A stretch of 56,475 bases of DNA from Gammaproteobacteria bacterium (lineage in GTDB: Bacteria; Pseudomonadota; Gammaproteobacteria; JACCXJ01): the NCBI GenBank assembly GCA_013697045.1, contig JACCXJ010000080.1, positions 1 through 56,475 of the forward strand, in the 5' to 3' direction. Below are positions 922 to 39,330 of this stretch, in pieces. Below the pieces are notes generated by a model. The model was not told where the DNA came from. It worked only from the letters and a program-made list of their open reading frames with translations, and ran no database searches. Within the stretch, counting starts at the first letter, position 1. Every line of letters starts with the position of its first letter. Made by a program: the position numbers and the translations under genes.

Positions 922-1829
922 TGCGCCGGCAGGGGGCGCAGGAACGTCAGCGGCAACTCGACCTCGTCGCGATAATCCACCAGTTCCCAGGCGCTCTTGT
1001 CCGCCAGGAGCCGCCGCAGCAGGCGGTTGTTCAAGGCATGCCCGGACTTGTGGCCGCGAAACGCCCCGATCAGGCCGTGGCCCAGGAGATACAGGTCGCC
1101 GATGGCGTCCAGGATCTTGTGCCGGACGAACTCGTCCTCGTAGCGGAGCCCGTCTTCGTTGAGCACCCGGTAATCATCGATGACCACGGCGTTCTGCAGG
1201 CTGCCGCCGAGTGCCAGGTCCTTCTCCCTCAGCATCTCGATTTCCTTGAGGAAGCCGAAGGTGCGTGCCCGGCTGACCTCTTTCACGAAGGAAGTCGTGG
1301 AGAAATCCACTTCGGCGAACTTGATGGTCTCGTCGAACAAGGGGTGGTCGAAATCGATCGAGAACGACACCTTGAAGCCGTCGAAGGGCTCGAGTCTGGC
1401 CCATTTGTCGCCGTCCTCGACGGCCACCGGGCGCTTGATGCGCACGAACTGCTTGGGGGCCGACTGCTCCTCGATGCCGGCCGACTGGATAAGGAACACG
1501 AACGGACCGGCGCTGCCGTCCATGATCGGCACCTCGGGGGCGCTGACATCGACATAGGCATTGTCGATCCCGAGACCCGCGAAGGCCGACAGCAGGTGCT
1601 CGACGGTCGCGATGCGCACCTCGCCCCTGGCGAGGGTGGTGGAGAGCCGCGTGTCGCCGACGTTCTCGGCGCGCGCCGGGATCTCGACCGCGGGTGTCAC
1701 ATCGACGCGACGGAACACGATGCCGCTGTGGGCCGGCGCCGGACGCAAGGTGACCAGCACCTTCTTCCCCGAGTGCAGCCCTACCCCCGTGGCCTTGATG
1801 CAGTTCTTGAGCGTGCGTTGTTTGATCAT
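918..1829 (-). CDS. lpxC: UDP-3-O-acyl-N-acetylglucosamine deacetylase
   Basis: [24 protein letters not shown] ... [15 protein letters not shown]. Start taken at Met19 of ORF 918..1883. The stop TGA (920-918) lies inside the terminal repeat of the 732-921 element. Confidence 0.95.
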
Positions 1830-2066
1830 GCCCCCCCTCCCGAGTTGCAGTAGCACAACAGACTCTAACCGAACAGGCATCATAATACAACAGCTTTATC
1901 GGCAGCGGAAGCCTCGGGGTTGCGTCGAGTGCAAGGGGAGCCCGACAGCCGGTGGCTTGGTTCGGAGAGATCGCTAGTCGTAGTCGATGGAATCCCCTCA
2001 TCGACCAGTTCCAGGCCCTGCGCACGCGGGGTCCCGTAGAGCGCGGAGCGTTCACTGTGCCGCAAC

Positions 2067-2094
2067 AAAAAAAGCCCCACCGCGAGGGTGGGGC
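2067..2094 (-). terminator. intrinsic terminator after the porin gene
   Basis: Minus strand reads GCCCCACC-CTCGC-GGTGGGGC followed by TTTTTTTGTT, about 40 nt downstream of the porin stop. Confidence 0.8.
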
Positions 2095-2134
2095 CAAGGT
2101 TTGGGGGAAGCGGTTTGCCGATCGATTGCGAGGA

Positions 2135-3538
2135 CTACCAGTAGGCCTGGGCGCGGAGCAGGAAGGCTTCGGGCTCGGCACCGTCGAAATCGCCGCCCTC
2201 GAGGTCCAGGACCCTCACGTAGTTGGCCATGAACCTGAAGTTGGGGGTCGGATACCAGTTGAGCCCTACGGTGACGTTATCCTCCTCGCCACCGTCCACG
2301 TCCTCGTCGCTGAGATCCAGGGTGCTGTAGCGCGCCAGAAGCTCCCAGGCCCCGATGCCCCCCTTGCCGACTATGCCCTTCGGTTTCGGGTTCTTGAACC
2401 TCGCTTCCTCGAACACATATTGGCGGGATTCGCCCGTGAGGACCCAGCTTCCCATGACGTACCAGCCATGGAAACCGACATCGGGGTTCCCGGCGACGTT
2501 CCGATTGACGTCGCCGCGCAGGTACTCGCCCTGGAGCGAGAAGGGCCCATAGACCCCGGCGCCCTCCAGCCCATAGCGGTTCACGTCCGCGGCATCGAGA
2601 TCGCCCGTATCTACCAGACGGTCGGCGCCGATCCGCGCTTCGGGCCGTGAGCGGATCCGCACCGTATGAGCATCGCCGGGGTTCAGCCAGGAACCGGCGA
2701 CCCCGAGGTGGAAGGCGCGATTCTCCGTATGCCAGGGCGAAAGAGTGAGGCGCCCGACGAAGGTGATCGGATCGGACTCGTCGTCCGCGCCGGTTTCCCC
2801 GGCGGCGTTCCTGCCGAAGATCCCCCCCGAGGCCGTCCAGACATTGTGGCCAAAGGTGTTTAGCCCCACGCCGAGTCGGCGTCCGTCGCTGCCCCCGCCG
2901 ATATCGTTGAACGTCCGGGAGGGCAAGGCCCGCTCGATGAAGCTGATGTCGTTGGAGCTCGTGATGCTCTCGAGCCCGAGGTACTCCTTGAACTGGCCCA
3001 CGGTGATAGAAAGGGGCCACCCCTCCGTGTGGAGATAGCGGAGATAGGCATCCCGTATACCTTCATCGACATCAGCGGCGCCCGCAAAGTCGTATTCGAG
3101 CTTGAGCTGCCAATAGCGATACAAGGTGGCCTCAATCGCCAAACGGGCGCGGCGGATGTCGGCACCGCTGGTGAGGGTCGTGGTGTCGCCGGTCCCGGTA
3201 TCGTTGCTGTAGAACGCCGCATCCGTGTGGAGACGCCCGCCGATTCTCCACTTGAAGGCCCCATCGGGGGTCGAGATCTCCAGTTTCTCCTTGGTCTCGA
3301 CCTTGGGCAGGGTCTCGGCAGCCTGCTTGATCTCCGACTGACCGGCCGTGTTTTGTTCGTCATCGCCCTGGGCCGCACTTTTGAGCTGTTCATAGGCCTC
3401 CGAGGTGATCGTGCCCTGGTCTTTCAGTACCTTGAGCAACTCGATCATGGCGTCGTTGGCGGCCCGGGCGCCCGGCGTGCAGAGCGCGCCGGCGACGGCG
3501 AGCGCCGTGCCTAGTTGCGTGATGCGTCTGTGATTCAC
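2135..3538 (-). CDS. phosphate-selective porin, OprO/OprP family
   Basis: GTG at 3538 preceded by GGGAGG. Signal peptide VNHRRITQLGTALAVAGALCTPGARA, N-terminal ELLKVLKDQGTITSEAYEQL segment, beta-rich body ending AQAYW. Divergent from phoBR with a Pho-box-like promoter. Confidence 0.8.
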   Translation of the reverse strand: MNHRRITQLGTALAVAGALCTPGARAANDAMIELLKVLKDQGTITSEAYEQLKSAAQGDDEQNTAGQSEIKQAAETLPKVETKEKLEISTPDGAFKWRIGGRLHTDAAFYSNDTGTGDTTTLTSGADIRRARLAIEATLYRYWQLKLEYDFAGAADVDEGIRDAYLRYLHTEGWPLSITVGQFKEYLGLESITSSNDISFIERALPSRTFNDIGGGSDGRRLGVGLNTFGHNVWTASGGIFGRNAAGETGADDESDPITFVGRLTLSPWHTENRAFHLGVAGSWLNPGDAHTVRIRSRPEARIGADRLVDTGDLDAADVNRYGLEGAGVYGPFSLQGEYLRGDVNRNVAGNPDVGFHGWYVMGSWVLTGESRQYVFEEARFKNPKPKGIVGKGGIGAWELLARYSTLDLSDEDVDGGEEDNVTVGLNWYPTPNFRFMANYVRVLDLEGGDFDGAEPEAFLLRAQAYW

Positions 3539-4681: not shown

Positions 4682-6010
4682 GTGAGGATGCGTCGAGACG
4701 TCTGGCGATTCCTGGGGCTGTCGGGCGCCGCCGCACTCGCGGGGGCCGCCGTGGGTCATGTGTTCCTCGGGCTATGGGCGGGCGCGCTCCTTTACTGCTA
4801 CTGGCAATGGCGCAACCTCGTCCGACTCTCGCCCTGGATCCGGCATCGCCGACGGGTCGAGGCGCCGGACGCGCCCGGGGTGTTCCAAGAGGTGTGCCGC
4901 AGCATCGACTGGCTGCGTAACCGCGAGAAGCGGCGCAAGAAGCAGCTCGCCACCTACCTCAAGCGGTTCCGGCAGGCCACCGCCGCGCTGTGTGACGCCG
5001 CGCTGGTGCTCGGTCCCGATGACGAGATCCAGTGGGCCAACGATGCCGCGGCGGAGCACCTCGGCGTGCGCTGGCCCCAGGACGCGCGCCAGCGGATCAC
5101 CAACCTGGTTCGCGAGCCGGCCCTCTATGAGCTGTTCAAGCGCAACAAGGAGCGCCGCGAGCTGCGCAGCTTGGAGCTACCTTCGCCGGTGAAACCCGAG
5201 GGCTTTCTCAGCATCGACGTGATGCCCTTCGGCGAAGCCCAGACGCTCATGATGGCCCGCGACATCAGCCGGCTCTATCACGCCAATCAGATCCGTCGCG
5301 ACTTCGTTGCCAATGTCTCGCACGAGCTCCGGACCCCGGTGACGGTGATCCGCGGTTATCTCGAGGCCCTGGCAGGGGACCGCGCCCGCTGCCCGGCCGT
5401 CTGGACCCCGGTGATCGCCCAACTCGAGTCCCAGACCCAGCGCATGCAGCGCATCATCGAAGACCTGCTGTATCTGTCGAGGCTCGAGCAGGACGACGGG
5501 GTCGCGCGGCCGGAGCCCGTCTGCGTCGCGGATCTCCTGTCCGAGATCTACCAGGAGGCCCAGACGGTGGAAGGCGGCGTGCGCCACCTCTACGCCCTGG
5601 AGATGGACGCGACGCTTTGTATCCTGGGGGCCCAGAGCGAGCTTTACAGTGCGTTCTCGAACCTCGTGGTCAATGCCGTGCGCTATACCGGTGAGGGAGG
5701 CGTGATCCGCATCCGCTGGTACCGGGATGCCGAGGGCGCCCACCTGGCCATCTCCGATACCGGGATCGGCATCCCGGCCCACCACATCCCGAGGCTCAGC
5801 GAGCGTTTCTATCGCGTGGACCAGGGCCGCTCGCGCGACAGCGGCGGCACCGGGCTCGGGCTCGCCATTGTCAAGCATGTGCTCAAGCGCCACCGCGCGC
5901 AGCTCTACATCGAGAGCACGCTCGGCAAGGGCAGCCTGTTCCGCTGCGACTTTCCCCCGGAGATGATCATCACAGAGGAGCGCGCGGCCGATCTCAGCCA
6001 CAGCGCCTAG
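4682..6010 (+). CDS. phoR: phosphate regulon sensor histidine kinase PhoR
   Basis: N-terminal TM helices, PAS-like segment, H-box FVANVSHELRTPVTVIRGYLE, G-boxes DTGIGIP and GGTGLGLAIVKHV. GTG 4682 or ATG 4688 start. Confidence 0.9.
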   Translation: MRMRRDVWRFLGLSGAAALAGAAVGHVFLGLWAGALLYCYWQWRNLVRLSPWIRHRRRVEAPDAPGVFQEVCRSIDWLRNREKRRKKQLATYLKRFRQATAALCDAALVLGPDDEIQWANDAAAEHLGVRWPQDARQRITNLVREPALYELFKRNKERRELRSLELPSPVKPEGFLSIDVMPFGEAQTLMMARDISRLYHANQIRRDFVANVSHELRTPVTVIRGYLEALAGDRARCPAVWTPVIAQLESQTQRMQRIIEDLLYLSRLEQDDGVARPEPVCVADLLSEIYQEAQTVEGGVRHLYALEMDATLCILGAQSELYSAFSNLVVNAVRYTGEGGVIRIRWYRDAEGAHLAISDTGIGIPAHHIPRLSERFYRVDQGRSRDSGGTGLGLAIVKHVLKRHRAQLYIESTLGKGSLFRCDFPPEMIITEERAADLSHSA

Positions 6011-6406
6011 CCCGAGGGGTAGGAGCTTCACGTCCACCCCGGGGCGTGCTACGCCCATCGCCGGCCTTCCCGTGATCGCCTCGCGTCACGCGAGAGACGG
6101 TCATAACGGTTGGCACCATGGTGAGCACATGGTCGAAGACGTGGCGCCGGTAAGCTCCGCGTCATCGTGGATCGCGTCTACCCTCTGCCATCGCGAGTAG
6201 GTCCACCATTGGGCTCTGGTGACGGGTACTCGACCGGCGCTGTTGTTCTTGTATGGGTGTCGTTTGGCAAGCGGCAATCTATAAGCTCGAATAAACAAAT
6301 AACCCCGCCGCGCTGTCTGAAGGCTCGGATCAACCACGTTCGCAACCATGCAGGCTCGTTACAGCACATTACGCAGGCCGGGACGCCGTCGCCAGCGGGG
6401 CGGTTC

Positions 6407-7450
6407 ATGAACCACTGGTCAGTAGTACGTCTGGTGCGCATGCTGCCGGGGCCGAAGCCGCACAACCCGTACTTCGACGCGGCGAAGCGCCATCACACGC
6501 CGGTTGGCTTCCGCAACAATCATCCCCGTGTCCCGCCCACGCAGGAGGAGTTGGCACGCCTGCGACGCGATCTCGGAGCGAAGGCGCCGGCCAGCGCGCC
6601 GCAGGTCGACCTCTCGCCGGTGGCGCCGGATCTGGCGCTGCTGCAGGCCAACCCCACGCGGCACGCGGTCACCTGGATCGGGCATTCCACCGTGTTGGTG
6701 CAGACAGGCGGGCGCAACCTCATCACCGATCCGATGTTCTCGCGGCGCGCTTCGCCCCTGCCCTTTACCGGCCCGCGGCGCCACCAGTCACCCGGCATCG
6801 CGCTGCGCGATCTGCCACCCATCGATCTGGCCCTGATCTCCCACAACCACTACGATCACCTCGACCTGCCCAGCGTGCGGGCGCTTGCGCGCCAGCGCGG
6901 CGCACCGCCCAGCTTCGCCGTGCCGCTGGGGCTGGAGCGCTGGTTCCGCCGCCGGCTTCCCGATGCGAACGTCGTGGCGCTCGACTGGTGGGAGAGCCGC
7001 GTGGTGGCGGACGTGATGGTGACCTTGGTGCCGGTGCACCACTGGAGCGCGCGCACCCCTTGGGACGGCAACAGCAACCTGTGGGGCGGTTGGGCTGCGG
7101 AGCGCGCGGGCTTCCGTTTCTTCTTCTCCGGCGATACCGCCTACTCGCAGGATTTTCCCGAGGTCGGCCGCCGGCTCGGGCCGTTCGACCTCGCCGCCAT
7201 CGCCATCGGCCACTACGAGCCGCGTTGGTTCATGCGCAACAATCACATCAATCCGGAGGAGGCTGTGCGTATCCACGGCGAGATCGGCGCGCGCCGCTCG
7301 TTGGGCATCCATTGGGGGACGTTTGAGGGCCTGACGCCCGAGCCCCTGGACCAGCCGCTGCGCGATCTTGCCGCGGCCCGGCTGGCCCGAGGTTTGGCGG
7401 AGGAGGAGTTTTTCGTCCTGCGGCACGGGCAGACCCGTGTGATCGAATGA
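6407..7450 (+). CDS. MBL-fold metallo-hydrolase (NAPE-PLD-like)
   Basis: ATG 6407 inside ORF 6167..7450. HSTVLVQTGGRNLITDP ... ISHNHYDHLD metal-binding motif. Confidence 0.8.
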   Translation: MNHWSVVRLVRMLPGPKPHNPYFDAAKRHHTPVGFRNNHPRVPPTQEELARLRRDLGAKAPASAPQVDLSPVAPDLALLQANPTRHAVTWIGHSTVLVQTGGRNLITDPMFSRRASPLPFTGPRRHQSPGIALRDLPPIDLALISHNHYDHLDLPSVRALARQRGAPPSFAVPLGLERWFRRRLPDANVVALDWWESRVVADVMVTLVPVHHWSARTPWDGNSNLWGGWAAERAGFRFFFSGDTAYSQDFPEVGRRLGPFDLAAIAIGHYEPRWFMRNNHINPEEAVRIHGEIGARRSLGIHWGTFEGLTPEPLDQPLRDLAAARLARGLAEEEFFVLRHGQTRVIE

Positions 7451-7500
7451 TCGGGGATACGGCCGTGGCTTCTCCTGTTTCTTGGGCCGCGCGTGGGGCT

Positions 7501-7635
7501 TCCGTTATCGATTTCCTCCACACCGACATATTCACCGACACAGACGATGGAGACGTTGACCCATGTGCTTGGCGACCCTGACCGGCGATTGAAGAACGGG
7601 GAGCTCAGCCCCACCTTAGTCGTGTGAAACGGCAT
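7501..7635 (-). pseudogene. fragment of an IS481/rve-type DDE transposase C-terminus
   Basis: WVNVSIVCVGEYVGVEEIDNG resembles the conserved ...VS..LAGEYVGLEEIDDG... tail of IS481-like integrase-core transposases. No catalytic part is present. Confidence 0.4.
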
Positions 7636-7658
7636 CTTTTACGCTCGGCGAGCACGCG

Positions 7659-8109
7659 ATGAAACGTTTCTCGGTCGTAACACCGCTGCAATCGGCAAAC
7701 GATGCCCCCGAGTCGGCAGATCCGTCGGCTCGCATTCCCGGGCCGCCGGTGACGGGTGCGCATGCGGACGACGCTCTGCACGACGCCTACTCACGCACAG
7801 TGAGCCGAGTGGCGCGACTGGCACGACATTGCGCCATTGCCGCGGCGCTGGGTGCGCGAGCACGACTGGCCGGTAGCCACGGGGCTGCGTGTGCAAGAGG
7901 TTGTGGCGGGCTCGGCTGCCGCGAATGCGGGACTGCGTGCGGGAGACTGGATCATCGGCGTGCAGGGCAAGCCCGTGTCGCAACTTTCCGATCTCTTGCA
8001 TTGGCTGGGTGGCAACGCCGCCGGTCAGGTGCTGCCATTGAAGATCCTGCGCCCGCGCGCCGGCATCCTCGAAGTCCTGCATGTGCTGGTGACGCCGACC
8101 GTCCACTGA
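7659..8109 (+). pseudogene. remnant of an HtrA/DegP-like serine protease (N-terminal stub plus PDZ domain, catalytic domain missing)
   Basis: Frame 0 gives ...DDALHDAYSRTVSRVA (HtrA-like N-terminus). Frame +1 ORF 7837..8109 gives a PDZ domain GLRVQEVVAGSAAANAGLRAGDWIIGVQGKPVSQLSDL. No His/Asp/Ser trypsin-fold segment lies between them. Confidence 0.5.
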
Positions 8110-8281
8110 ATTCACCGACGGTCGCCCTTGCGCCCCATCCAGCACCGTCGCTGTGGAAGAGGACAAGGTTGTCGTTTGGCACGTCATATTGCACAGCCTC
8201 GTACGTAACCAGATTTCTACCGTTGAATGGAAGGGCACAGATCCCTGCTACGGTCGGAAGCCTTCCGCAACAAAACGGCAT

Positions 8282-9028
8282 TCACGGCATGCCCGCCGAT
8301 ACGGCACGCGGTGCCAATAACGCAGACTCAACCAGAACATCGACGCCGCCCGCGAGTCGGATCGCACCCGCTGGCAGCTGCTCGCCGGCGCGCCAGCGTG
8401 TGACGGCACTGCGCTTGGCTTCGCCTTCGACCATGAACAGCACCTCGCGCGTGCGGCTCAACCGCGCCGCGCTGAGCGACACCCGCTGCGGCGGCGGCTT
8501 CGGCGCATCGAACACGGCCAGGGCATCCGGTGTGCTTGCTGCGACGCCCCAGTCGCGGCCGGGAAACAGACTGGCGGTGTGGCCGTCCTCGCCGAGGCCG
8601 AGCAGCACCAGGTCGAAATCGCCGACGCCGCGCAGCGTTTCCGCGTAGGCGAGCGCCGCCGCTCTCGCGCCGAGCTCGGCGGGAATCGCGTGCACCTGGT
8701 CTTGCGGAATCGGCGCGCGATTGAGCCAGGCATCGGCCGCCATCCGGCTGCTGCGCTCGGCGTCGTCCGCCGGCAGGCAGCGCTCGTCGCCGAAGTACAC
8801 CTGCCAGCGCGACCAGTCGGTGTCCGCAGTGCGCAGCATCTGGTAGATGCCGCGCGGCGTGTTGCCGCCGACGAGCACGATCAGGAACCGGCCGCGCCGT
8901 TCGATCGCGTGCGCGGCGGCGTCGAGGATGCGCCGGTACGCCATCTGCCGCAGCGCCGCGGCGTCGGCGACGCCGATCCAGCGCACGCTGCCGGGGCCGG
9001 CATCGTCCTGCGTGTCCGTAGCGCTCAT
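8282..9028 (-). CDS. pgl: 6-phosphogluconolactonase
   Basis: LVGGNTPRGIYQML ... LLGLGEDGHTASLFPG. The start overlaps the gnd stop (ATGA). Confidence 0.9.
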   Translation of the reverse strand: MSATDTQDDAGPGSVRWIGVADAAALRQMAYRRILDAAAHAIERRGRFLIVLVGGNTPRGIYQMLRTADTDWSRWQVYFGDERCLPADDAERSSRMAADAWLNRAPIPQDQVHAIPAELGARAAALAYAETLRGVGDFDLVLLGLGEDGHTASLFPGRDWGVAASTPDALAVFDAPKPPPQRVSLSAARLSRTREVLFMVEGEAKRSAVTRWRAGEQLPAGAIRLAGGVDVLVESALLAPRAVSAGMP

Positions 9029-9930
9029 TCCTTCTTGATCGCGTGCCCGCCGAACTGGTTGCGCATGGCCGCCAGCAGCTTGTCGGAGTACGAGTCCACG
9101 TCGCGCGAGCGCAGGCGCTCGATCAGCGACAGCGTGATGACCGGCGCGGAAACCTCGAGGTCGATCGCCTCGGCCACGGTCCAGCGCCCTTCGCCGGAAT
9201 CCTCGACGTAAGGAGCGATCCCGGTCATCGCCGGATTCTTTTCCAGCGCCGCCGCCGTGAGGTCCAGCAGCCAGGAGCGCACCACGCTACCATGGCGCCA
9301 GATTTCGGCGACCTGGTGCAGGTCCAGCCCGAGCTCGCGCTTGTGCTGCAGGATGGAGAAGCCTTCAGCGTAGGCCTGCATCAGGCCGTATTCGATGCCG
9401 TTGTGAATCATCTTGGTGAAGTGGCCGGAGCCCACGGGGCCGACGCGGCCCCAGCCTTGATCCTTGGCGGGCGCTAGTGTTTCGAAGATCGGCGCCAGCC
9501 GTTCGACGGCCGCTTCGTCGCCGCCGATCATCATGCTGAAGCCCTCGGCTAGACCCCACACGCCGCCGCTGGTACCGCAGTCGATGTAGTGGATGTTTTG
9601 GTCGGCAAATCTCTTGGCCCGGCGGAGCGTGTCCTTGTAGTTGGAATTGCCGCCGTCGATGACCGCGTCGCCTGTGGCCAGCAAAGGCAGAAGATCCGTG
9701 AGGGTGCCTTCCGTGATTTCGCCGGCGGGCACCATCAGCCATAGCGTGCGCGGGGCTGGCAGTTTCGCTACCAGCGTGGCAAGCGAATCCGCGGATTCGG
9801 CGCCTTTGTCCTCCAGGTCCTTGCGTGCTTCGGGTTTCGGATCGAAGCCCGCCAGTTGATGTCCGCCGCGCATCAGACGCTGCGCCATGTTGGCGCCCAT
9901 GCGCCCCAAACCGATCATGCCGAGTTTCAT
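9025..9930 (-). CDS. gnd: 6-phosphogluconate dehydrogenase, decarboxylating (short 300-aa type)
   Basis: MKLGMIGLGRMGANMAQRL Rossmann N-terminus; GNSNYKDT; HNGIEYGLMQAYAEG. Confidence 0.9.
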   Translation of the reverse strand: MKLGMIGLGRMGANMAQRLMRGGHQLAGFDPKPEARKDLEDKGAESADSLATLVAKLPAPRTLWLMVPAGEITEGTLTDLLPLLATGDAVIDGGNSNYKDTLRRAKRFADQNIHYIDCGTSGGVWGLAEGFSMMIGGDEAAVERLAPIFETLAPAKDQGWGRVGPVGSGHFTKMIHNGIEYGLMQAYAEGFSILQHKRELGLDLHQVAEIWRHGSVVRSWLLDLTAAALEKNPAMTGIAPYVEDSGEGRWTVAEAIDLEVSAPVITLSLIERLRSRDVDSYSDKLLAAMRNQFGGHAIKKE

Positions 9931-9976
9931 ATCATCTCCTTAGTTGGTGGTCACCACTTCAACCGGCGCCGCGTCG

Positions 9977-10360
9977 TCACGAGGACCGGCGCGCGTCCCG
10001 CTCGAACCAGTTGTCACGGTAGTAATGCCGCCCGCGCAAGAGGGCCCAGGCCGAAGAGGCCAGATAGGCAAAAGGGAACAACGCCCCGAACCGCTCCGTT
10101 TGGCGCACGTGAACGCGCTCATGCGCTCGCGTTCGCTCGAGGCAATCCGCATCACGGCCGAGCACGACGTGCCCGAGCGTCATCGCGTGGGCGCGCACGG
10201 GTGTCACGCTCAAAAGCAGGCGAGCAACCCCCCCGTGACATTCGAGGACACCGGTGTGCGTCCGTGCCCGCCCGCCGGAGAAGAGCGATAAGGCCACGGC
10301 CATGAGCCCGAAGAGCGTCACCGGTGAGGCCCAGAGATAGCGCAACACACGGCCCGCCAT
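9977..10360 (-). CDS. hypothetical small membrane protein with HExxH-like motif
   Basis: Start taken at MAGRVLRYLWASPVTLFGLMAVALSL (hydrophobic helix). AHERVHVRQTERFG motif. Family not recognised. Confidence 0.45.
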   Translation of the reverse strand: MAGRVLRYLWASPVTLFGLMAVALSLFSGGRARTHTGVLECHGGVARLLLSVTPVRAHAMTLGHVVLGRDADCLERTRAHERVHVRQTERFGALFPFAYLASSAWALLRGRHYYRDNWFERDARRSS

Positions 10361-10463
10361 TCCCGCCAGCCCCTGCTCAGCGTGCTGTCGTCCGCGACGC
10401 CCTCGCTTTCTCTTACCAACTGCCGTAAGTAGTCGCCCCCACTGATAAAAAGGCCGGCGCTCA

Positions 10464-10721
10464 TCAAACAGCAAACACCGCCGGATCCACCCCGAAGCGC
10501 TCACCCAGCGCCCGGACCTGGCGCACATTCAATTCCAGGTTGCCGGCCAGGATTTCCGATAGCACGCCCTGGTTGCCCACCTCGGGCAGGTCGGACTGGG
10601 TCAGACCATGGGCCTGCATGAGATAGCGTAATGCCTCGACCGGTTCCGCCTCTCCCCAGGGGTGAGCCCGGGCCTCATACTCCTCCAGCCGATCGCCGAT
10701 CAACTCGACCAGATCCCACAA
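10464..10721 (-). pseudogene. higA: HigA-like HTH antitoxin, 5'-truncated; no higB
   Basis: LWDLVELIGDRLEEYE...ALRYLMQAHGLTQSDLPEVGNQGVLSEILAGNLELNVRQVRALGERFGVDPAVF parallels the C-terminal roughly 88 aa of E. coli HigA. No ATG and no homologous N-terminal roughly 45 aa upstream. Confidence 0.55.
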
Positions 10722-10859
10722 GGGACTCGTGGATGCCGGCCAGAGATAACGAGTGCAAAGACACCACGCGCCCCGTGACCCAGGCCGACGTGCGCGAGCT
10801 GGCCAGCAAGGTCGAGTACGTGCGCGGTAAGGACGAATGTCCCTAACCAGGCGATTCTG

Positions 10860-13622
10860 GTGGCCCGTTCCGGCTTTGCCAACAATGCCCATGCGGTCGC
10901 GAGGACGCTCTTGGTGCAACTCCGCACCTACGACGCACTGCTGCGCTCGCTGGCCGATCTCCCGGCCTGCATCGAAGCCGGGCTGCGCGCCTTCCAGGGC
11001 AGCGCCCTGGAACGTCTGTACGTCGAGCAGGACGTGCTGCTCGACGAGGAGCTGGAGGCGCCGCAACGCCGTGCCCTGGTGAAGTCGGTCGATGACTGGC
11101 TGGCAGAGCCCGGCCAGGGCTTTCTGGCGCTGCTCGGAGATTTCGGCACCGGCAAGACCAGCTTTGCGAAGCGCTACGCGGCCGCGCTCGCGGCCCTGGC
11201 TAAGGGCTCCCCGGAAGAGCACCGGGTGCCTGTCCTCATCGATCTACGCGAGGCGCGCTCCACCACCGTGAGCCTGGAGAACATCCTCACCCACCGCTTC
11301 CAGTCGCTCTCGCCCCGGCCTTTCAATCCGCAAGCCCTCTTGCACTTGAACCGCGAGGGGCATCTGGTGCTCATCTTCGACGGCTTCGACGAGATGCTGG
11401 GCTACTCCGATCCGGGCCAGTATGCGGAGAACCTGCGTCAGATCCTGCGCGCGGCCGAGGGACGCGCCAAGGTGGTCCTGACTTGCCGCACGCACTACTT
11501 CCGCGATCGGCCCGAGGCGCTCAAGAAACCTGACCAAGCAGCCGGCGGTCGTCTCGACCACCGGCGCCACACAACTGTGGGCCGGGCCGGCACCCGGGTC
11601 TTTTATCTGTGCGACTTCAGCGATGCGCAGCTCGAGGATTTCCTGCAACGCGCGCTGCCGCCGCCGGCCGACTGGAGGCAGTTCCGCAAGGCGATCCGCC
11701 GTACCTACAACCTGGAGGACCTGGCCACCCGGCCGTTCCTGCTCGACCTGATCGTCAAGACGCTGCCCCGGTTGCAAGCCCGCGAGGGCACGGTGACCAT
11801 CGCCGATCTGTACGAGGCCTATTGCGAGGAGTGGTTCCGGCACACCGACTTTCGCCTGACCTTGGTACGCGAGCACAAGGTGGCGCTGGTCGAATACCTG
11901 GCGCGACTGGTGTGGGAGTCGCCGGACACGCGCGTGCACTACGAGGTGCTGGCGGGCAAGGCCCAGGAATTTTTTGGTGAGCGCCCGCTGACGCCCTTCG
12001 AGAAGGAGAAGATCGACTACGAGGTGCGCACCGCCCTTTTCCTCAACCGCGACGCACGGGGCTACTACTCGTTCATCCACCGGTCCTTCTTGGAGTTCTT
12101 CGTCGCGCGCACCCTGCGCTCCGGACTGGCGTCGGGAGATCCCGATGCGCTGGACCTCAGGCGGCTGACCCGCGAGGTGGCGTTCTTCCTGGAATTCTGG
12201 GACGAGTCCGGCCACATCCCCGAACGCTGTGGCGCGGTCCTCAGCGTGCCCTACCGCCGGCGCGTGAGCGAGAACGGCCTCTTGCTGCTCTACTGGCACG
12301 CCTGTGCGCGTCTCGGGCCACTCGCGGGCGCGCCCGAGGCGCTCGATCCGGCTGCGCTGGCTGCCGCCATCCGGCAGCACTGGCGGGAGTCGTCGATCGA
12401 GCCGAGCCGCTTCCACTTGGAGGGGGCCGAGCTGGCGGGCGCGCACATCCCTGGCATCTGGCTGGACGGCGCATCGCTCGCCGGGGCCGACCTATCGCGG
12501 GCCGGCTTGCGCGCAGCAAGCCTCGGCGGCGCGAAACTTTGCAAGGCGCGTTTGGAGTTCGCGGACGCACATGCGGCCGTGTTCGGCGGGGCGCAGTTGC
12601 TCGACGCCGATCTGAATCATCTGGACGCCCGTGCGGCCGTGCTCTCGGGCGCCGATCTGTCGGCCGCGGATCTGAGCTTCGCCAAGCTGGCCGGGGCCGA
12701 TCTGCGCGACGTGCAACTCGACGGCGCGTGTCTCACCGGAGCGGGGTTGCTCTGTGCCGAGGGCCTGCTGCCCGCGGTCGTGCTGGACCGCTTCGCCGGC
12801 CGCAGCACCACGGGCGAGACCGCACTGGATCTGGTGATCCAACGCGGTCACGCGGAGCCTGTCCGATGCGTCGCCTGGAGCCCGGACGCCCGGGTCGTCG
12901 CATCGGCCTCGACCGACCACACCGTCAAGCTCTGGGATACGGTCAGCGGTACCCTGCTGCGGACGCTCACCGGTCACAAGGGCGAGGTCTGGTCCGTAGC
13001 CTGGGACGGGCGCGGCGAGCGGCTGGCCTCGGGGTCTGCCGACCACACGGTCAAGCTCTGGGACACGGCCAGCGGGACCCTTCTGTGGACCCTCACGGGC
13101 CATGAGTACGGGGTCGGGTCCGTGGCCTGGGACACGCGCGGGGAGCGGCTGGCCTCGGGGTCTGTCGACCATACGGTCAAGCTCTGGGACGCAGAGAGGG
13201 GCCAGTTGCTCTGGACCCTCACGGGCCACGAGCAATGGGTCAGGTGCGTGGCCTGGGACGCGCGCGGGGAACGGCTAGCCTCGGGGTCTGTCGACCATAC
13301 GGTCAAGCTCTGGGACGCAGAGAGGGGCCAGTTGCTCCGGACCCTCACGGGCCACGAGGACGGAGTCAGGTCCGTAGCCTGGGCCGGGCGCGAGGAACGG
13401 CTGGCCTCGGGGTCCGGCGACCACACGGTAAAGCTCTGGGACGCAGAGAGCGGCCAGTTGCTCCGGACCCTCACGGGCCACGAGCAATGGGTCAGGTCCG
13501 TGGCCTGGGACGCGCGCGGCGAGAGGCTAGCCTCGGGTTCACATGACCGGACGGTCAAGCTCTGGGATGCAACGAGTGGCCAGTTGCTCCGAACCCTCAC
13601 CGGTCACGAGGCTGGGTCTTAA
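10860..13622 (+). CDS. NACHT (STAND) NTPase with pentapeptide repeats and WD40 repeats; leading 920-codon ORF of a gene that continues in other frames
   Basis: Walker A GDFGTGKTS (11136-11162), Walker B LVLIFDGFDEM (11364-11396), pentapeptide repeats at 12411-12760, WD40 blades from 12846. Premature TAA at 13620-13622 in mid-blade. Confidence 0.85.
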   Translation: MARSGFANNAHAVARTLLVQLRTYDALLRSLADLPACIEAGLRAFQGSALERLYVEQDVLLDEELEAPQRRALVKSVDDWLAEPGQGFLALLGDFGTGKTSFAKRYAAALAALAKGSPEEHRVPVLIDLREARSTTVSLENILTHRFQSLSPRPFNPQALLHLNREGHLVLIFDGFDEMLGYSDPGQYAENLRQILRAAEGRAKVVLTCRTHYFRDRPEALKKPDQAAGGRLDHRRHTTVGRAGTRVFYLCDFSDAQLEDFLQRALPPPADWRQFRKAIRRTYNLEDLATRPFLLDLIVKTLPRLQAREGTVTIADLYEAYCEEWFRHTDFRLTLVREHKVALVEYLARLVWESPDTRVHYEVLAGKAQEFFGERPLTPFEKEKIDYEVRTALFLNRDARGYYSFIHRSFLEFFVARTLRSGLASGDPDALDLRRLTREVAFFLEFWDESGHIPERCGAVLSVPYRRRVSENGLLLLYWHACARLGPLAGAPEALDPAALAAAIRQHWRESSIEPSRFHLEGAELAGAHIPGIWLDGASLAGADLSRAGLRAASLGGAKLCKARLEFADAHAAVFGGAQLLDADLNHLDARAAVLSGADLSAADLSFAKLAGADLRDVQLDGACLTGAGLLCAEGLLPAVVLDRFAGRSTTGETALDLVIQRGHAEPVRCVAWSPDARVVASASTDHTVKLWDTVSGTLLRTLTGHKGEVWSVAWDGRGERLASGSADHTVKLWDTASGTLLWTLTGHEYGVGSVAWDTRGERLASGSVDHTVKLWDAERGQLLWTLTGHEQWVRCVAWDARGERLASGSVDHTVKLWDAERGQLLRTLTGHEDGVRSVAWAGREERLASGSGDHTVKLWDAESGQLLRTLTGHEQWVRSVAWDARGERLASGSHDRTVKLWDATSGQLLRTLTGHEAGS

Positions 13623-14075
13623 CCGTGGCCTGGGCCGCGCGCGGGGAGCGGCTGGCCTCGGGGTCTCGGGACCACACGGTCAAGCTCTGGGACGAGCGAG
13701 TGGCCAGTTGCTCGGGACCCTCACGGGTCACGGGGGCTGGGTCAGGTCCGTGGCGTGGGACGCGCGCGGGGAACGGCTGGCCTCGGGGTCCGGCGACCAC
13801 ACGGTAAAGCTCTGGGATGCGGGGAGCGAGACCCTGCTGTGGACGCTCAGGGGCCACGAGGACTGGATCAGGTCCGTGGCCTGGGACACGCGCGGCGACC
13901 AACTGGCCTCGGGGTCTTCTGACCAGACAGTCAGGCTCTGGGACGCGACCAGCGGACAGTTGCTGCGCACGCTACCGGGACACGACGCCGGCGTCATGTC
14001 CATAGCCTGGGACCCACACGGCGAGCGGCTGGCCGTCGGCTGTGCCGACGGCAGCCTCTGGATCTGGGACGTGGC
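12846..14075 (+). repeat. ten tandem 126-bp (42-codon) WD40 coding repeats
   Basis: Unit GH-x3-V-x-SVAWDxRGERLASGSxDHTVKLWDxxSGxLLxTLT. For example, 13153-13211 is identical to 13279-13337 (59 nt), and 80 of 81 nt match when extended. Confidence 0.9.
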
Positions 14076-14351
14076 GGCCGATCCGCCGCGCCCGCTCGTG
14101 CGTCTCTACGCCGGGCCCGACGGCGGTGTCTGGCGGTCACGCCCGATGGCCTCGTGGCTGCTAGCGACCCTCGGGCCCTGGATTTGGTACGCTTCGCCGA
14201 CCGCTGGGCCCTTTACGATGCCAGCGATGTCCCGAGCCGGGTCATCGGCTTCGAGCAGATCGCCGAATACCTGCGCGGCCCCGCGACATCACGCCGGAAG
14301 CGCTCGAATCCGCCTAAGGGCGGGGAAAAGAGGGACCGGAATGCCAGGTAA
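13625..14351 (+). pseudogene. displaced 3' part of the NACHT-WD40 gene (frames 2, then 1, then 0)
   Basis: Blade 7 continues in frame 2 (AWAARGERLASGSRDHTVKLWD). Blades 8-10 are in frame 1 (GHGGWVRSVAWDARGERLASGS...). The C-terminal tail LAVTPDGLVAASDPRALDLVRFADRWALYDASDVP is back in frame 0, ending at 14351. Confidence 0.75.
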
Positions 14352-14710
14352 GGTAACCCTTGCTGCGTTCCCGTCTGGGAAAGTCATGCTGAGCGCTTTT
14401 CACAGGGATTAAATCCTGCGGCGTCGCAGCGGGCTTACTCTCGCACGCGTAACTCACCTTACTCATTAATACGCCAAATATGCAGCCCGCTCTCAAGCAT
14501 CCAAATTTCATCCTCACCACTCACAATCTGAACGGTACTTCTCACGAACAGGCACCGAATAGCCAACGGATTTTCTAGCTTCCCGTTGAGCATCGTTGTC
14601 GTTGTCTATGTCGTCAAATAGTTCCTCAAAATAGTCTTCACGCAACGGGGCACCCTTGGTCGGTCGGTATACCGCACGGAAGAATGAATGGGTTAAAGGG
14701 GTAGAGTAGA

Positions 14711-14769
14711 GGGCAGGCAGTGCCTGCCCTCCCTCATCAAGCCGTGCATGCGGTTCTCCCGCACACGGC
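14711..14769. repeat. REP-like hairpins just upstream of the RAYT remnant
   Basis: Palindrome GGGCAGGCA-G-TGCCTGCCC (14711-14729) and imperfect hairpin GCCGTGCATGCGG..CCGCACACGGC (14741-14769). Confidence 0.5.
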
Positions 14770-14784
14770 TTTCCGATGTTCTTC

Positions 14785-15006
14785 ATGCCGAGGCATGCGC
14801 CGAGCGCCAGCCTGCCACCGCAGGAACCTAGAGCAGAGACGGTGCCCAGGCTTATCATCTCGCTGGAACGGCGCTACCTGCAGTACATCTACAGAAACTA
14901 CCGCCGCACCGGCACGCTATGGGACAGCCGCTACAAGTCCTCACTTATCCAGGCCGAGACTTATCTCCTCACCTATGGTTCGGTGATACGTCCATCTTCC
15001 TCATAG
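14785..15006 (+). pseudogene. REP-associated tyrosine transposase (RAYT, IS200/IS605-like Y1) remnant
   Basis: SLERRYLQYIYRNYRRTGTLWDSRYKSSLIQAETYLLT matches the conserved RAYT core (GRRYVQYINR.Y.RTGTLWEGRYKS). The N-terminal HUH region and the C-terminus are missing. Confidence 0.65.
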
Positions 15007-15200
15007 ATCGAGGCGGGATGCTCCCCTGGACCGTCCCGTCCGCCACCCCTTGCTGTTCTATCATCACAATCCCTGTAGGGCTTGTGGGGGGTCTGTGGGC
15101 AACAGTGCGGCCTTCCCAGTTGATGGAAAACGCGCGGATTTCTGTCCTGATCAAATCGAGAACCGCCAAGCGGACTGACTCCATCAGCGTTTTGAAGGCT

Positions 15201-15809
15201 TCACGTCCACAGTTCCCGGACGTCAAGACTGAATCCCCTGAGCAGCGGCTCGCCCGACACAGTAGCCGGGTTGTCGAGGCAGTCAACAGCAACCTCCGGG
15301 CGGTGCACATAGACTTTCTTCTCGACAGGATCGATCAGCCAGCCCATCTCGGCGCCGTTGTCGATGTATTCCTGCATTTTGTTCTGTAAGTCACCGAGCG
15401 AATCGGTCTCAGAGCGAAGCTCAACGACGAAGTCGGGGCACAGTGGCGGAAACTGCTTGCGTTCGATTTCGGTGAGGGCATTCCAGTGCGAGAACCTGAC
15501 CCAAGCGAGATCGGGTGACCGCTTCGCGCCATTGGGGAGCGTGAACCCGGTAGATGAGTCGAAACCCACTCCGGTGCCATCGGCCTTGGCCCACGCGTAA
15601 AAGGCCCCGGTCAGACTGAAGTTGCGCTTTCCGGTCTCTCCTCCGGTTGGTGGCATAATGATGATGTCTCCATCACTCGTACGCTCGATGCTCCAGTCTC
15701 GATTCGCCTGACAGAACTCGAAGAAGTCCTCATCGCTAAGTCTTCTCAGCACCGGGCCGAAGTGAATCACGAAGGGATTGGACTCTGTTGGTCTAAGTGA
15801 AATGCTCAT
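15201..15809 (-). CDS. Uma2 family (DUF820) PD-(D/E)xK-type putative endonuclease
   Basis: ATG 15809 (MSISLRPTESNPFVIHFGP...). DWSIERTSDGDIIIMPP, PDLAWV, PDFVVELRSETD, EYIDNGAEMGWLIDP are typical Uma2 blocks. Confidence 0.8.
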   Translation of the reverse strand: MSISLRPTESNPFVIHFGPVLRRLSDEDFFEFCQANRDWSIERTSDGDIIIMPPTGGETGKRNFSLTGAFYAWAKADGTGVGFDSSTGFTLPNGAKRSPDLAWVRFSHWNALTEIERKQFPPLCPDFVVELRSETDSLGDLQNKMQEYIDNGAEMGWLIDPVEKKVYVHRPEVAVDCLDNPATVSGEPLLRGFSLDVRELWT

Positions 15810-15855
15810 AGATCCTCCGCCGCACGGATTTGATACAGCGTGATTATAACACCGC

Positions 15856-15944
15856 GGGATAAAGGGGTCGGAGTGAATTTTGTGACCTTGATGCAACACG
15901 ATGATGAGCATGCTGCCCAAAATTCACTCCGACCCCTTTATCCC
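15856..15944. repeat. REPIN-like perfect inverted repeat (27-bp arms, 35-nt spacer)
   Basis: GGGATAAAGGGGTCGGAGTGAATTTTG (15856-15882) is the exact reverse complement of 15918-15944. It sits between the Uma2 start and the stop of the small ORF at 15946. Confidence 0.9.
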
Positions 15945-15945
15945 A

Positions 15946-16101
15946 CTAGCGAAACAGCACCAGCGCCTTCTCCAGCGTGATATAGATCCCCCAGCCCAGC
16001 GGTATACCGACGAGCGTCCAGGCGATCGCGACCAGGAACCAGCTTGCTGGGCTCGGGCGTTCCATGGGGCTCTGGCTGCCCCGGTCGGCGCGTGGTGACA
16101 T
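15946..16101 (-). CDS. small membrane protein (51 aa) downstream of the OFA transporter; resembles MFS-transporter small subunits
   Basis: Not in the ORF track (under 60 aa). AGGGAG Shine-Dalgarno then ATG 16101. MSPRADRGSQSPMERPSPASWFLVAIAWTLVGIPLGWGIYITLEKALVLFR has one TM helix. It begins 15 nt after the transporter stop. Confidence 0.6.
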   Translation of the reverse strand: MSPRADRGSQSPMERPSPASWFLVAIAWTLVGIPLGWGIYITLEKALVLFR

Positions 16102-16115
16102 GGTCTCCCTCTGGC

Positions 16116-17603
16116 TCAGGCCTTGGCGGGCTCGTGTGCGAGCCGGCGCTCGGTCTCCAGCTCGAGATCGCTCATGTAATAGCGCTGCGCCACGGGCCGC
16201 ATGAGCAGGTTGCAGACGAGGCCCACGAGCAACAGCGAGGCGAGCACGTAGAGGGTCACGTTATAGGCCTGGTGGACGGGCACGCCGCGTTCGATCTGGA
16301 ACTCGCGGATGTAGTTGACGAGGACCGGGCCGAGGACCCCGGCGGTGGACCATGCCGTCAGTAACCGCCCATGGATCGCCCCCACGAACTGGGTGCCGAA
16401 GATGTCGGCCAGATAGGCGGGGATGGTGGCGAACCCGCCTCCGTACATGGTGAGGATGATGCAGAAGAGCGCCACGAACAGCGCCACGTGGCCGATCTGC
16501 CCGGCATAGGGGGCCGAGGCGTAGAGCGCCATCCCGAGCGCGAAGAACAGGAAGTAGGTGGTCTTGCGCCCGATGAAGTCGGACATCGAGGCCCAGCCGA
16601 TCCGGCCGAGGATATTGAAGAGGCTCAGGAGGCCGGTGAAACCCGCCGCGATCAACGCCACGTCCTTCTTCTCCTCCGGGGACAGCTCGGCGAGTGACAG
16701 GTCGAGCCCCACGAGGCCGCCGCCGAAGACCTCCTGCAACATCGGCGAGGCCATACCGATGACCCCGATCCCGGCGCTGACGTTCATGCACAAGACCCCC
16801 CAAAGCATCCAGAACTGCGGGGTGTTGGGGGCGCGGTAGAGATGCACGTGCCGGTTCGTGATCATGCTCGTGCGTGTCGCGGACGGCTCCCATCCCGACG
16901 GTTTCCAGCCCGTGGGCGGCACGCGATAGGCGAAGGCCCCGCACAGCATGGCGATGAAATAGACGATGCCGAGGGTGACGAAGGTCTCCCACACACCCAC
17001 CGATGTCGGGGTCGCGTAATGCTGCATCAGCAACTCGGCGAGCGGTGCCCCGATCATGGCGCCGCCGCCGAAGCCCGCGATCGCCATGCCGGTCGCCATC
17101 CCACGGCGGTCCGGGAACCATTTGATGAGCGTGGACACGGGCGAGATGTAGCCGAGCCCGAGCCCGCAACCGCCGATGATGCCCGAGCCCAGCCACAGCA
17201 GGCGGATCTCGTGGAGGTAGACCCCGAGCGCCGAGATCAATAAACCTCCGCCCCAGCACCAGGCCGCGACCACCCCCGCCTTGCGTGGCCCGGCGTGCTC
17301 CAGCCAACGGCCGAAGACGGCGGCCGAGGAGCCGAGGTACACGAAGAACAGGGTGTACATCCACCCGAGCGTGCTGATCTTCCAGTCGCAGCCGTGCGCG
17401 ATGATGTGCTCGAACCACCCGAGATCGGGCGGGCACGGGAGGGGTTCGGTGACACCGAGCGCCTTGCTGAGCGGCAGCCAGAACACGCTGAAGCCGTAGG
17501 CCATGCCGATGGAGAGATGGATGGCCAGGGCTGCCGGCGGCACCAACCAGCGGTTGAAGCCGACCTTGGCGATGGTGCGTTCTTTCGCGAGCAGACTAGA
17601 CAC
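16116..17603 (-). CDS. MFS transporter, oxalate/formate antiporter (OFA) family
   Basis: MSSLLAKERTIAKVGFNRWLVPPAALAIHLSIGMAYGFSVFWLPL; 12 hydrophobic segments; 495 aa. Confidence 0.85.
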   Translation of the reverse strand: MSSLLAKERTIAKVGFNRWLVPPAALAIHLSIGMAYGFSVFWLPLSKALGVTEPLPCPPDLGWFEHIIAHGCDWKISTLGWMYTLFFVYLGSSAAVFGRWLEHAGPRKAGVVAAWCWGGGLLISALGVYLHEIRLLWLGSGIIGGCGLGLGYISPVSTLIKWFPDRRGMATGMAIAGFGGGAMIGAPLAELLMQHYATPTSVGVWETFVTLGIVYFIAMLCGAFAYRVPPTGWKPSGWEPSATRTSMITNRHVHLYRAPNTPQFWMLWGVLCMNVSAGIGVIGMASPMLQEVFGGGLVGLDLSLAELSPEEKKDVALIAAGFTGLLSLFNILGRIGWASMSDFIGRKTTYFLFFALGMALYASAPYAGQIGHVALFVALFCIILTMYGGGFATIPAYLADIFGTQFVGAIHGRLLTAWSTAGVLGPVLVNYIREFQIERGVPVHQAYNVTLYVLASLLLVGLVCNLLMRPVAQRYYMSDLELETERRLAHEPAKA

Positions 17604-26690: not shown

Positions 26691-29317
<2,627 letters not shown>

Positions 29318-35640: not shown

Positions 35641-38853
<3,213 letters not shown>

Positions 38854-39330
38854 ATGAGCAAGACACCCATGACCCAGAGCGGGGCACAGAAGCTCCGAGA
38901 TGAGCTTCAGCGCCTCAAGAACGACGTCCGTCCGCGTATCATCCGGGCGATCGCCGAGGCGCGCGCACACGGTGATCTCAGCGAGAACGCGGAGTATCAC
39001 GCCGCGCGCGAGCAGCAAGGGTTCGTCGAGGCGCGCATCGCCGACATTGAGGGAAAGCTGTCCCACGCCGAGGTCATCGACATTGCCGCCATCAATGCAC
39101 GCGGCAAGGTGGTGTTCGGGGCCACCGTGGAGATCATGAACGTGGGCACGGAAGAGGTGGCCGTCTACCAGATCGTCGGGGAGGACGAGGCCGACATCAA
39201 GAGCGGCCTGGTCTCGATCCGCTCCCCCATCGCCCGCGCCCTGATCACCAAGGAGGCCGGGGAGATCATCGTGGTCGAGGCGCCGGGCGGGCGTCTGGAA
39301 TACGAGATCATCGACGTGCGTTACGTCTGA
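38854..39330 (+). CDS. greA: transcription elongation factor GreA (in frame with, and not separated by a stop from, carB)
   Basis: GAGGAG Shine-Dalgarno 6 nt before ATG 38854. [57 protein letters not shown]...; 158 aa, colinear with E. coli GreA. Confidence 0.9.

Follow-up and report, generated by a model that had tools for sequence, protein, structure and literature searches.

Prokaryotic WD40 proteins of the Highly-Repetitive type, with repeats that vary at their contact sites, have been known since 2017 (Hu et al. 2017, PMC5587647). They combine 42-residue units, a DHSW-type scaffold, internal identity of at least 0.7 and diversity at predicted top-face hotspots, and their structural example is the Nostoc punctiforme protein of PDB 2YMU. 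Membership of the class requires that, among eight contiguous repeats, six or more share amino-acid identities of 0.7 or higher in every pair. Contacts on the top face of WD40 propellers are made at the positions termed R1-2, R1 and D-1 (PMC3419727). The repeats of fungal HNWD genes are highly conserved internally, polymorphic in number within populations, and variable at a few hypervariable codons (PMC12222747). In HET-E, HET-D and HET-R of Podospora anserina a NACHT domain is joined to 126-bp WD40 units with a scaffold homogenised by unequal crossing-over. In bacteria, beta-propeller and pentapeptide repeats are among the sensor types of the bNACHT antiphage proteins, which include bNACHT25 with its Mrr-like nuclease effector (Kibby et al. 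2023; 10.1101/2022.07.19.500537).

The window analysed here, a stretch of 56,475 nucleotides, comes from an uncultured gammaproteobacterium whose 90%-complete genome is in 417 contigs. It holds a gene with an ancestral layout of ParA/MinD-like domain, Mrr_cat nuclease (a restriction-endonuclease-like effector domain), NACHT, pentapeptide repeats, WD40 repeats and conserved tail. Effector, NACHT and repeats lie in one frame in the intact relatives P0004, P0005, P0009 and P0011. The window copy is a pseudogene that has been split by a rearrangement and carries six frameshifts (near 10840, 11525, 11590, 13611, 13695 and 14130); half of these lie within the WD40 array or immediately behind it. Outside the array, its features are:

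10750..10751, forward strand: rearrangement breakpoint that cuts the gene inside Mrr_cat; the sequence upstream is unrelated, and homology to P0004 starts at 10751
10751..10843, forward strand: C-terminal remnant of Mrr_cat in frame 2, followed by a shift near 10840 into frame 0
10860..13622, forward strand: longest surviving frame (P0001), 920 codons with NACHT, helical domains, pentapeptide repeats and W1 to mid-W7
about 11127-11531, forward strand: NACHT NTPase in P0001, with Walker A GDFGTGKT and Walker B LIFDGFDE
11525..11595, forward strand: compensated frameshift pair; frame 1 gives the homologous reading LTKQPAVVSTTGATQLW, and about 22 residues are garbled in frame 0
about 12400-12760, forward strand: pentapeptide repeats in P0001
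14133..14351, forward strand: conserved C-terminal tail (AVTPDGLVAASDPRALDLVRFADRWALYD...), frame 0, stop at 14349-14351

The Mrr_cat remnant is 81% identical by tblastn to residues 217-247 of P0004 (ECKDTTRPVTQADVRELASKVEYVRGKDECP), and the match goes on in another frame; with only this 31-residue remnant left upstream, in another frame, the intact one-frame layout of N-terminal effector, NACHT and C-terminal repeat sensor is absent. The missing 5′ part lies on the minus strand of another contig of the same genome (C360), where the ParA/MinD-like domain and the N-terminal half of Mrr_cat end near 27885 with ...AAAIASY. P0001 is collinear with P0004 at 68% identity, and its Pfam matches comprise NACHT (PF05729, 3.2e-10, above cut-off), Pentapeptide (3.1e-14) and WD40 (PF00400, E = 1.4e-71 over six stretches), the last also being found in P0002 (3.5e-35). 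The frameshift pair at 11525..11595 was found by three-frame translation against P0004 (SFTPQPALISTPGATQLWEE). The tail is 65% identical to P0004 (residues 54-102 of the C-terminal query), and tblastn with the C-terminus of P0004 changes frame between 14130 and 14136. The layout of the ancestral gene resembles that of bNACHT proteins, with an N-terminal nuclease effector, a central NACHT and C-terminal repeats that build a superstructure; the window copy cannot be functional. The first-pass annotation had read the gene as NLR-like; its NACHT module with both Walker motifs agrees with this, but the copy is a pseudogene with its 5′ part elsewhere.

The WD40 array occupies 12813-14070 on the forward strand. 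With the KLWD codons as anchor it divides into ten units of 126 bp, the number that had been proposed, although W7 and W8 have 125 nt:

12813-12938, forward strand: W1
12939-13064, forward strand: W2
13065-13190, forward strand: W3
13191-13316, forward strand: W4
13317-13442, forward strand: W5
13443-13568, forward strand: W6
13569-13693, forward strand: W7, 125 nt
13694-13818, forward strand: W8, 125 nt
13819-13944, forward strand: W9
13945-14070, forward strand: W10
13152-13211 and 13278-13337, forward strand: 60-nt exact duplicate crossing the W3/W4 and W4/W5 boundaries

Between 12913 and 14039, Tandem Repeats Finder detects a periodicity of 126 bp, with 9.0 copies, 81% matches and a score of 1226. 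DNA identity among W2-W9 is 72-89% with a mean of 80.5% (76% for protein), but the terminal units are more diverged from the others (W1 52-59%, W10 65-70%), so that the very high mutual identity first ascribed to all ten blades is an overstatement. The identity noted between 13153-13211 and 13279-13337 holds, the exact run in fact starting at 13152/13278 and 80 of 81 nt matching when it is extended; a second exact pair of 48 nt is found at 13394/13770. The best solved relative of the array is 2YMU (E = 5.5e-155), the highly repetitive Nostoc WD40 protein. An AlphaFold2 model of W1-W6 from single-sequence input has four strands per unit and, with a mean pLDDT of only 60, was used for strand register only.

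When translated across the frameshifts, W2-W8 form seven units with all pairwise identities at least 0.71, five units remaining at a threshold of 0.75 and three at 0.8. The array resembles the Highly-Repetitive WD40 proteins in unit length, scaffold, internal identity and diversity at the predicted top-face hotspots, but belongs to their lowest tier (0.7-0.8), has ten units, and is broken by frameshifts and not translated whole. A pattern of this kind is not new in a bacterial gene, having already been described in that class (PMC5587647). The likeness to the fungal HET-E/NWD repeats that had also been suggested extends to the NACHT domain, the 126-bp unit, the homogenised scaffold, in which the hypervariable codons are few and map to the interaction surface, and a set of units that is shuffled, enlarged or reduced from one individual to another; identity, however, is at the low end of the fungal range, as fungal repeats are 80-100% identical and W2-W9 span 72-89%. 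The effectors also differ, with fungal domains on one side and an Mrr-type nuclease with a ParA-like domain on the other, and the pentapeptide module is an addition of the bacterial gene. Nothing points to allorecognition here, and this copy is dead.

Amino-acid variation among the units peaks at columns 15, 16, 18, 34 and 36, of which columns 16, 18 and 34 correspond to the published positions R1-2, R1 and D-1 and the other two are neighbours of these. This register is backed by alignments to 2YMU and WDR5; in the strand pattern of the AlphaFold2 model, columns 14-16 fall in the D-A loop and columns 33-35 in the B-C turn. The contact columns are also among the most variable in three intact arrays, variability across 45 homologous proteins is highest at the same columns as in the window, and the window and family column profiles are correlated (Spearman 0.66). 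The summed entropy of the five top columns in the window was reached by 30 of 200000 random 5-column sets, and the summed pN at columns 16, 18 and 34 by 87 of 20000 random 3-column sets. All of the variable slots listed in the first-pass annotation are correct, namely columns 14-16 (after GH), 18, 24 (WDx), 34 (SGSx) and 1-2 (WD-xx-SG), and the match of peak columns to contact positions agrees with the placement on the top surface that it had proposed to check. Variation is not, however, confined to the ligand face: six top-face columns account for 38% of the pairwise amino-acid differences in the window, the loops of the bottom face (columns 1-5 and 23-28) for 43% and the strands for 19%. Given the bottom-face share, part of the variation reflects the ancestry of units, which fall into TxSGTLL and AxxGQLL sub-types, and not diversification of contact sites.

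Estimates of dN/dS were reported on the a-priori columns 16, 18 and 34, because choosing columns for their high entropy would be circular. With only three codons per unit and non-independent unit pairs, the ratio in the window is 0.66 at these columns against 0.30 at the rest, and in three intact homologues it is 1.06, 1.49 and 2.23 against 0.36-0.40 elsewhere. Synonymous divergence is also higher at the variable columns (pS 0.55 vs 0.33). The location of the variable codons agrees with the fungal type, but the ratio at contact columns in the window does not exceed 1. A rapidly evolving recognition surface, as first suggested for this locus, is not supported, since a pseudogene makes no surface on which selection could act.

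Turnover of units between strains, another of the expectations raised at the outset, is real. In a second haplotype (L003), whose flanks are 99.8% identical to those of the window, with 10 differences over 5.2 kb, unequal crossing-over has removed one unit and added another: its unit L2 joins the head of W2 to the tail of W3, with loss of W3, and its unit L8 joins the head of W9 to the tail of W8. Words specific to W3 are absent in runs X2, X3 and X7. The hybrid marker 13016 C>G is fixed as the sole form in X2 and X3, and both forms are present in X1 and X5. In the syntenic orthologues L005 and L006, 13 and 10 units were detected, and the inner units have no one-to-one match. Because unit order was taken from assemblies of short reads, and Logan contigs are interrupted within the array, the order in each haplotype is not independently phased.

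The frame of the array is disrupted by three single-nucleotide deletions, and frame 0 ends at the stop TAA 13620-13622, so that the array is not one open frame:

13609..13622, forward strand: 1-nt deletion in W7, in the run GAGGCTGGGTC, leading to the frame-0 stop TAA
13694..13695, forward strand: second 1-nt deletion, at the start of W8, polymorphic in nature
14129..14130, forward strand: third 1-nt deletion, polymorphic in nature, returning the C-terminal tail to frame 0

These deletions were followed in contigs from eight metagenomic DNA runs. The W7 deletion is present in contigs from X1, X2, X3, X4, X5, X14 and X15 (five studies), and no alternative form of it was seen in those seven runs. 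At the start of W8, the form with C put in behind 13694 is the sole form in X5 and X14 and absent in X1-X4 and X15, and X6 and X14 contain the form with C put in behind 14129. Two of the deletions are covered in X1-X4 by an identical 332-nt contig (13468-13799). All four junction types occur in metagenome contigs; the two ancestral ones, Mrr|ECKD and A|B, have about half depth in X1 and X5. The strains that retain the Mrr|ECKD junction also appear to carry the shift near 10840, judging from a single shared contig that starts at 10750.

It is highly improbable that the gene is intact and functional and that its frameshifts arose from faulty sequencing or assembly of a GC-rich, repetitive region in a metagenome. 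The fragmentation of the genome and the position of some indels in short G or C runs would favour such errors, as would the known mis-assembly of highly conserved repeat arrays from Illumina data (PMC12222747). The key indels nevertheless recur without a single difference in contigs that were built independently for runs of five studies, and L003, a separate JGI contig, carries them as well; they are genuine, and assembly error does not account for them. Two of the indels are polymorphic, each with a clean alternative form, both new junctions are assembled with the 5′ part on the other contig, and six shifts are gathered in one gene, whereas the long frames elsewhere on the contig are intact (neighbouring frames of 1100-1229 codons are open).

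It is also unlikely, if somewhat less so, that the 920-codon frame is still expressed, giving a protein of NACHT, pentapeptide repeats and six WD40 blades that lacks an effector and serves as decoy or regulator, or works with the Uma2 endonuclease encoded 0.85 kb downstream on the opposite strand. The frame is long and open and retains its Walker A and B motifs, but its GTG start lies inside the former end of Mrr_cat with no start or promoter identified, the garbled residues follow the NACHT core, and six and a third blades are too few to close a propeller of 7 or 8. Downstream indels are still accumulating and polymorphic, as expected without constraint. In the one RNA-Seq-labelled run, which holds a 3-5% diverged strain, the flanks are deep and the gene is nearly without coverage, a pattern that fits lack of transcription and absence of the gene equally. 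Two of the indels do exist in both states in wild populations and the array still recombines, as would be expected if the indels were reversible switches (by phase variation or programmed frameshifting) or if the array, in the manner of antigenic-variation systems, kept silent WD40 cassettes in store for conversion into an active receptor gene elsewhere. Against so improbable an arrangement stand the length of the runs (only 2-4 nt, not typical slippage tracts), the single state of the W7 deletion, and the splitting and upstream frameshifting of the gene. A store would also need a recipient, and no second array of similar DNA or other NACHT homologue was found in the 90%-complete genome, where searches matched only WD40 genes at 38-50% identity and the gene's own 5′ piece.

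The array is very probably the fossil sensor domain of a dead bacterial NLR-like STAND NTPase, with a pattern of scaffold and slots inherited from a functional ancestor. In intact relatives, unequal crossing-over and conversion would keep the 126-bp units alike while the top-face residues (columns 15, 16, 18, 34 and 36) vary from blade to blade; by analogy with characterised NLRs and bNACHT proteins, these residues probably bind a ligand and thereby promote NACHT oligomerisation and activation of the nuclease. At this locus, a rearrangement at 10750/10751 has moved the 5′ third of the gene to another contig, and six single-base frameshifts have accumulated, two of them still polymorphic in wild populations. 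Reshuffling of the array by unequal crossing-over persists in the dead gene because all that it requires is similar DNA in the units, whether or not selection acts. The locus offers a clean natural example of unit loss and gain that goes on after gene death, and separates mutational mechanism from selection; beyond this it adds little new, as hypervariable, internally conserved WD40 sensors are already known in bacteria and fungi.

With regard to origin, the closest relatives of the gene are from Acidobacteriota, and the gene was probably acquired horizontally by its host. PADLOC 2.0 has no specific model for the subfamily and returned only generic WD40 and Mrr matches. A WD40-led search of genome contigs yielded mostly cyanobacterial NACHT-WD40 genes at 28-43% identity, none of them fit for comparison at the unit level. 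The intact relatives come mostly from Acidobacteriota/Thermoanaerobaculia genomes assembled from metagenomes and point to a widespread NLR subfamily of soil bacteria (ParA-like, Mrr, NACHT, pentapeptide, WD40), within which the intact P0004, P0005 and P0009 are better subjects than this copy for the study of sensor diversification.

In the array-bearing frame, a NACHT NTPase with Walker A (GDFGTGKT) and Walker B (LIFDGFDE) motifs is accompanied by helical domains, pentapeptide repeats and the WD40 units. Its relatives, most of them encoded in metagenome-assembled genomes of Acidobacteriota/Thermoanaerobaculia, are 1200-1600 residues long and have an Mrr_cat nuclease at the N-terminus, with a ParA/MinD-like domain ahead of it in some; P0004 (encoded on locus L004) is the closest, at 70% identity. 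Bacterial NACHT proteins have been described as tripartite, with nucleases listed among the effectors and beta-propellers or pentapeptide repeats among the sensors (Kibby et al., 10.1101/2022.07.19.500537), and the family of the window gene matches this layout. PADLOC holds no specific model for this Mrr-NACHT-pentapeptide-WD40 subfamily. The host is an uncultured gammaproteobacterium; its genome encodes a FimV-type protein and a CarB with 78-84% identity to entries from Gammaproteobacteria, Chromatiales and Steroidobacteraceae. Since the relatives are mostly from Acidobacteriota, the NLR-like gene looks horizontally acquired. L004 also carries, at 1573-2799 (-), a separate WD40-only gene of 408 residues, 3 kb upstream of the P0004 gene and on the other strand.

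Tandem Repeats Finder detects a 126-bp period at 12913-14039 (9.0 copies, 81% matches, score 1226), and with the KLWD codons as anchor the array divides into ten units, W1-W10, at 12813-14070. The first-pass annotation had ascribed very high mutual identity to these units, citing a match of 13153-13211 to 13279-13337. The example is correct, and the exact run is in fact 60 nt, from 13152/13278 (80/81 nt match when extended); a second exact pair of 48 nt lies at 13394/13770. The general description is overstated, because the inner units W2-W9 are 72-89% identical in DNA (mean 80.5%) and 62-88% in protein (mean 76%), and identity to the other units falls to 52-59% for W1 and 65-70% for W10. By the published criterion the array is nonetheless a Highly-Repetitive WD40 array, with seven units all pairwise at least 0.71. 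A catalogue of 305 such proteins, about half of them prokaryotic, reported that their hotspot sites stay highly diverse (Hu et al. 2017, PMC5587647). The pattern of the window array is therefore of an already known kind, but this copy is defunct.

The window's NLR-like gene is dead. Units W7 and W8 are 125 nt each; frame 0 ends in a stop at 13620-13622, W7 is readable in frame 2 and W8-W10 in frame 1, and the conserved tail (14133-14351) is back in frame 0 owing to a third 1-base loss at 14129/14130. Upstream, a compensated pair of frameshifts near 11525 and 11590 puts the conserved motif GATQLW into frame 1, and an Mrr_cat remnant of 31 residues (10751-10843) is cut off from the frame by a shift near 10840. 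Assembly error was considered as the source of the deletions and rejected, because the same deletions occur in sequencing runs of several studies and long frames are open elsewhere on the contig. An identical 332-nt piece spanning two deletions (13468-13799) is present in Logan contigs of the public runs X1, X2, X3 and X4, from three studies, and the W7 deletion was found in seven runs from five studies with no alternative form. Clean alternative '+C' forms exist for the deletions at 13694 (X5/X14) and 14129 (X6/X14), and both deletions are therefore younger and still segregating.

Homology to the relatives ends abruptly at 10750/10751. The missing 5′ part, which comprises a ParA-like domain and the Mrr_cat first half up to ...AAAIASY, is found on C360, another contig of the same genome, near 27885 on the minus strand, where it is joined to unrelated sequence. 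Contigs from public soil metagenomes contain all four junctions: the derived A|ECKD (window) and Mrr|B (C360), and the ancestral Mrr|ECKD and A|B, which reach about half depth in X1 and X5 and also occur in X4. With microhomology of 1-2 nt and about 7 nt lost at the junctions, the break carries the hallmarks of a still-polymorphic inversion or reciprocal rearrangement.

Repeat turnover, the absence of which would have counted against the earlier reading, is real. L003, a JGI contig representing a second haplotype of the locus, spans window 9850-16269, differs at 10 sites in 5.2 kb of flanks and shares the window's indels. As assembled, its second unit joins the head of W2 to the tail of W3 (crossover within nt 72-78), so that W3 is lost, and an extra unit with a W9 head and W8 tail sits between W8 and W9; such hybrids are what unequal crossing-over is expected to produce. 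The public runs lend independent support: W3-specific words are missing from X2, X3 and X7, X2 and X3 show only the hybrid form of the marker at 13016 (C>G), and X1 and X5 show both forms side by side. The intact syntenic orthologues on L005 and L006 are ~89% identical outside the array, with 13 and 10 detected units, respectively, and match one-to-one for the terminal units only. Turnover persists in a dead gene, which marks it as a feature of the DNA itself rather than a sign of ongoing selection. The otherwise intact P0009, the L005 orthologue (6001-10356), has at residues 979-1055 two in-frame WD40 units that are partial or hybrid (…AAGSYEWDAESGRELRGGHGSW…), so open genes too undergo illegitimate recombination within their units.

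Columns were numbered from the residue after WD (GH = 12-13, tetrad Asp = 35, WD = 41-42). The most variable columns of W2-W9 are 34, 2, 15, 18, 24, 8 and 16, and the variable slots singled out in the first-pass annotation are all among them. Both in three intact homologous DNA arrays and in a set of 45 homologous proteins, the columns with the highest within-protein entropy are 34, 16, 18, 15 and 36. In the window these five columns, chosen from the homologues alone, hold 8.36 of a total entropy of 22.79, a value equalled or exceeded by 30/200000 random five-column sets, and the window and family column profiles correlate (Spearman 0.66). Columns 16, 18 and 34 are exactly the R1-2, R1 and D-1 positions, which protrude on the top face and account for most of the contacts in 29 WD40 complexes (Wu et al., PMC3419727). 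Among solved structures the best match is 2YMU, a highly repetitive propeller from Nostoc (E = 5.5e-155). By phmmer offsets to full-length WDR5 (2xl2_A; query 48 pairs with residue 37), columns 18 and 34 fall on S91, F133, A65, D107 and F149, which belong to the arginine-binding pocket. A single-sequence AlphaFold2 model of W1-W6, of low confidence (pLDDT 60), has four strands per unit, and in it columns 14-16 belong to the D-A loop and columns 33-35 to the B-C turn. The proposal that variation lies on the ligand face holds in part: six top-face columns account for 38% of pairwise amino-acid differences, the loops of the bottom face (columns 1-5, 23-28) for 43% and the strands for 19%.

Nei-Gojobori counts compared the a-priori columns 16, 18 and 34 with the other 39 columns.

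Table. dN/dS at columns 16/18/34 and at the remaining 39; few codons and non-independent unit pairs underlie the estimates.
Window array: 0.66; other columns, 0.30
L004 (intact): 1.06; other columns, 0.38
L005 (intact): 1.49; other columns, 0.36
L006 (intact): 2.23; other columns, 0.40

The values fit diversifying or relaxed selection at putative contact sites across the family. Positive selection at columns 16/18/34 was not seen in the window array by this measure. The proposed rapidly evolving recognition surface is partly supported: the reading suits the family and not the window copy, a dead gene with a dN/dS of 0.66.

Directly downstream of the dead gene, GC content dips to 58% at 14001-16000 (contig, ~66%), and a Uma2-family endonuclease gene lies at 15201-15920 (-); together these fit an accessory, decaying island. 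Run X22, labelled RNA-Seq, contains a relative diverged by 3-5% over window 9000-16500, with both flanks at depth 100-270 and almost no coverage at 10757-14521 or at 15275-15776. This strain either is without the NLR remnant and Uma2 gene or does not transcribe them. Elsewhere in the window, a single 1229-codon open frame at 35641-39330 (+) encodes the whole of CarB (the large subunit of carbamoyl-phosphate synthase) with GreA domains behind it. Close CarB homologues are ~1072 residues long, and the frame represents a carB-greA fusion or read-through, or else the loss of a stop codon.
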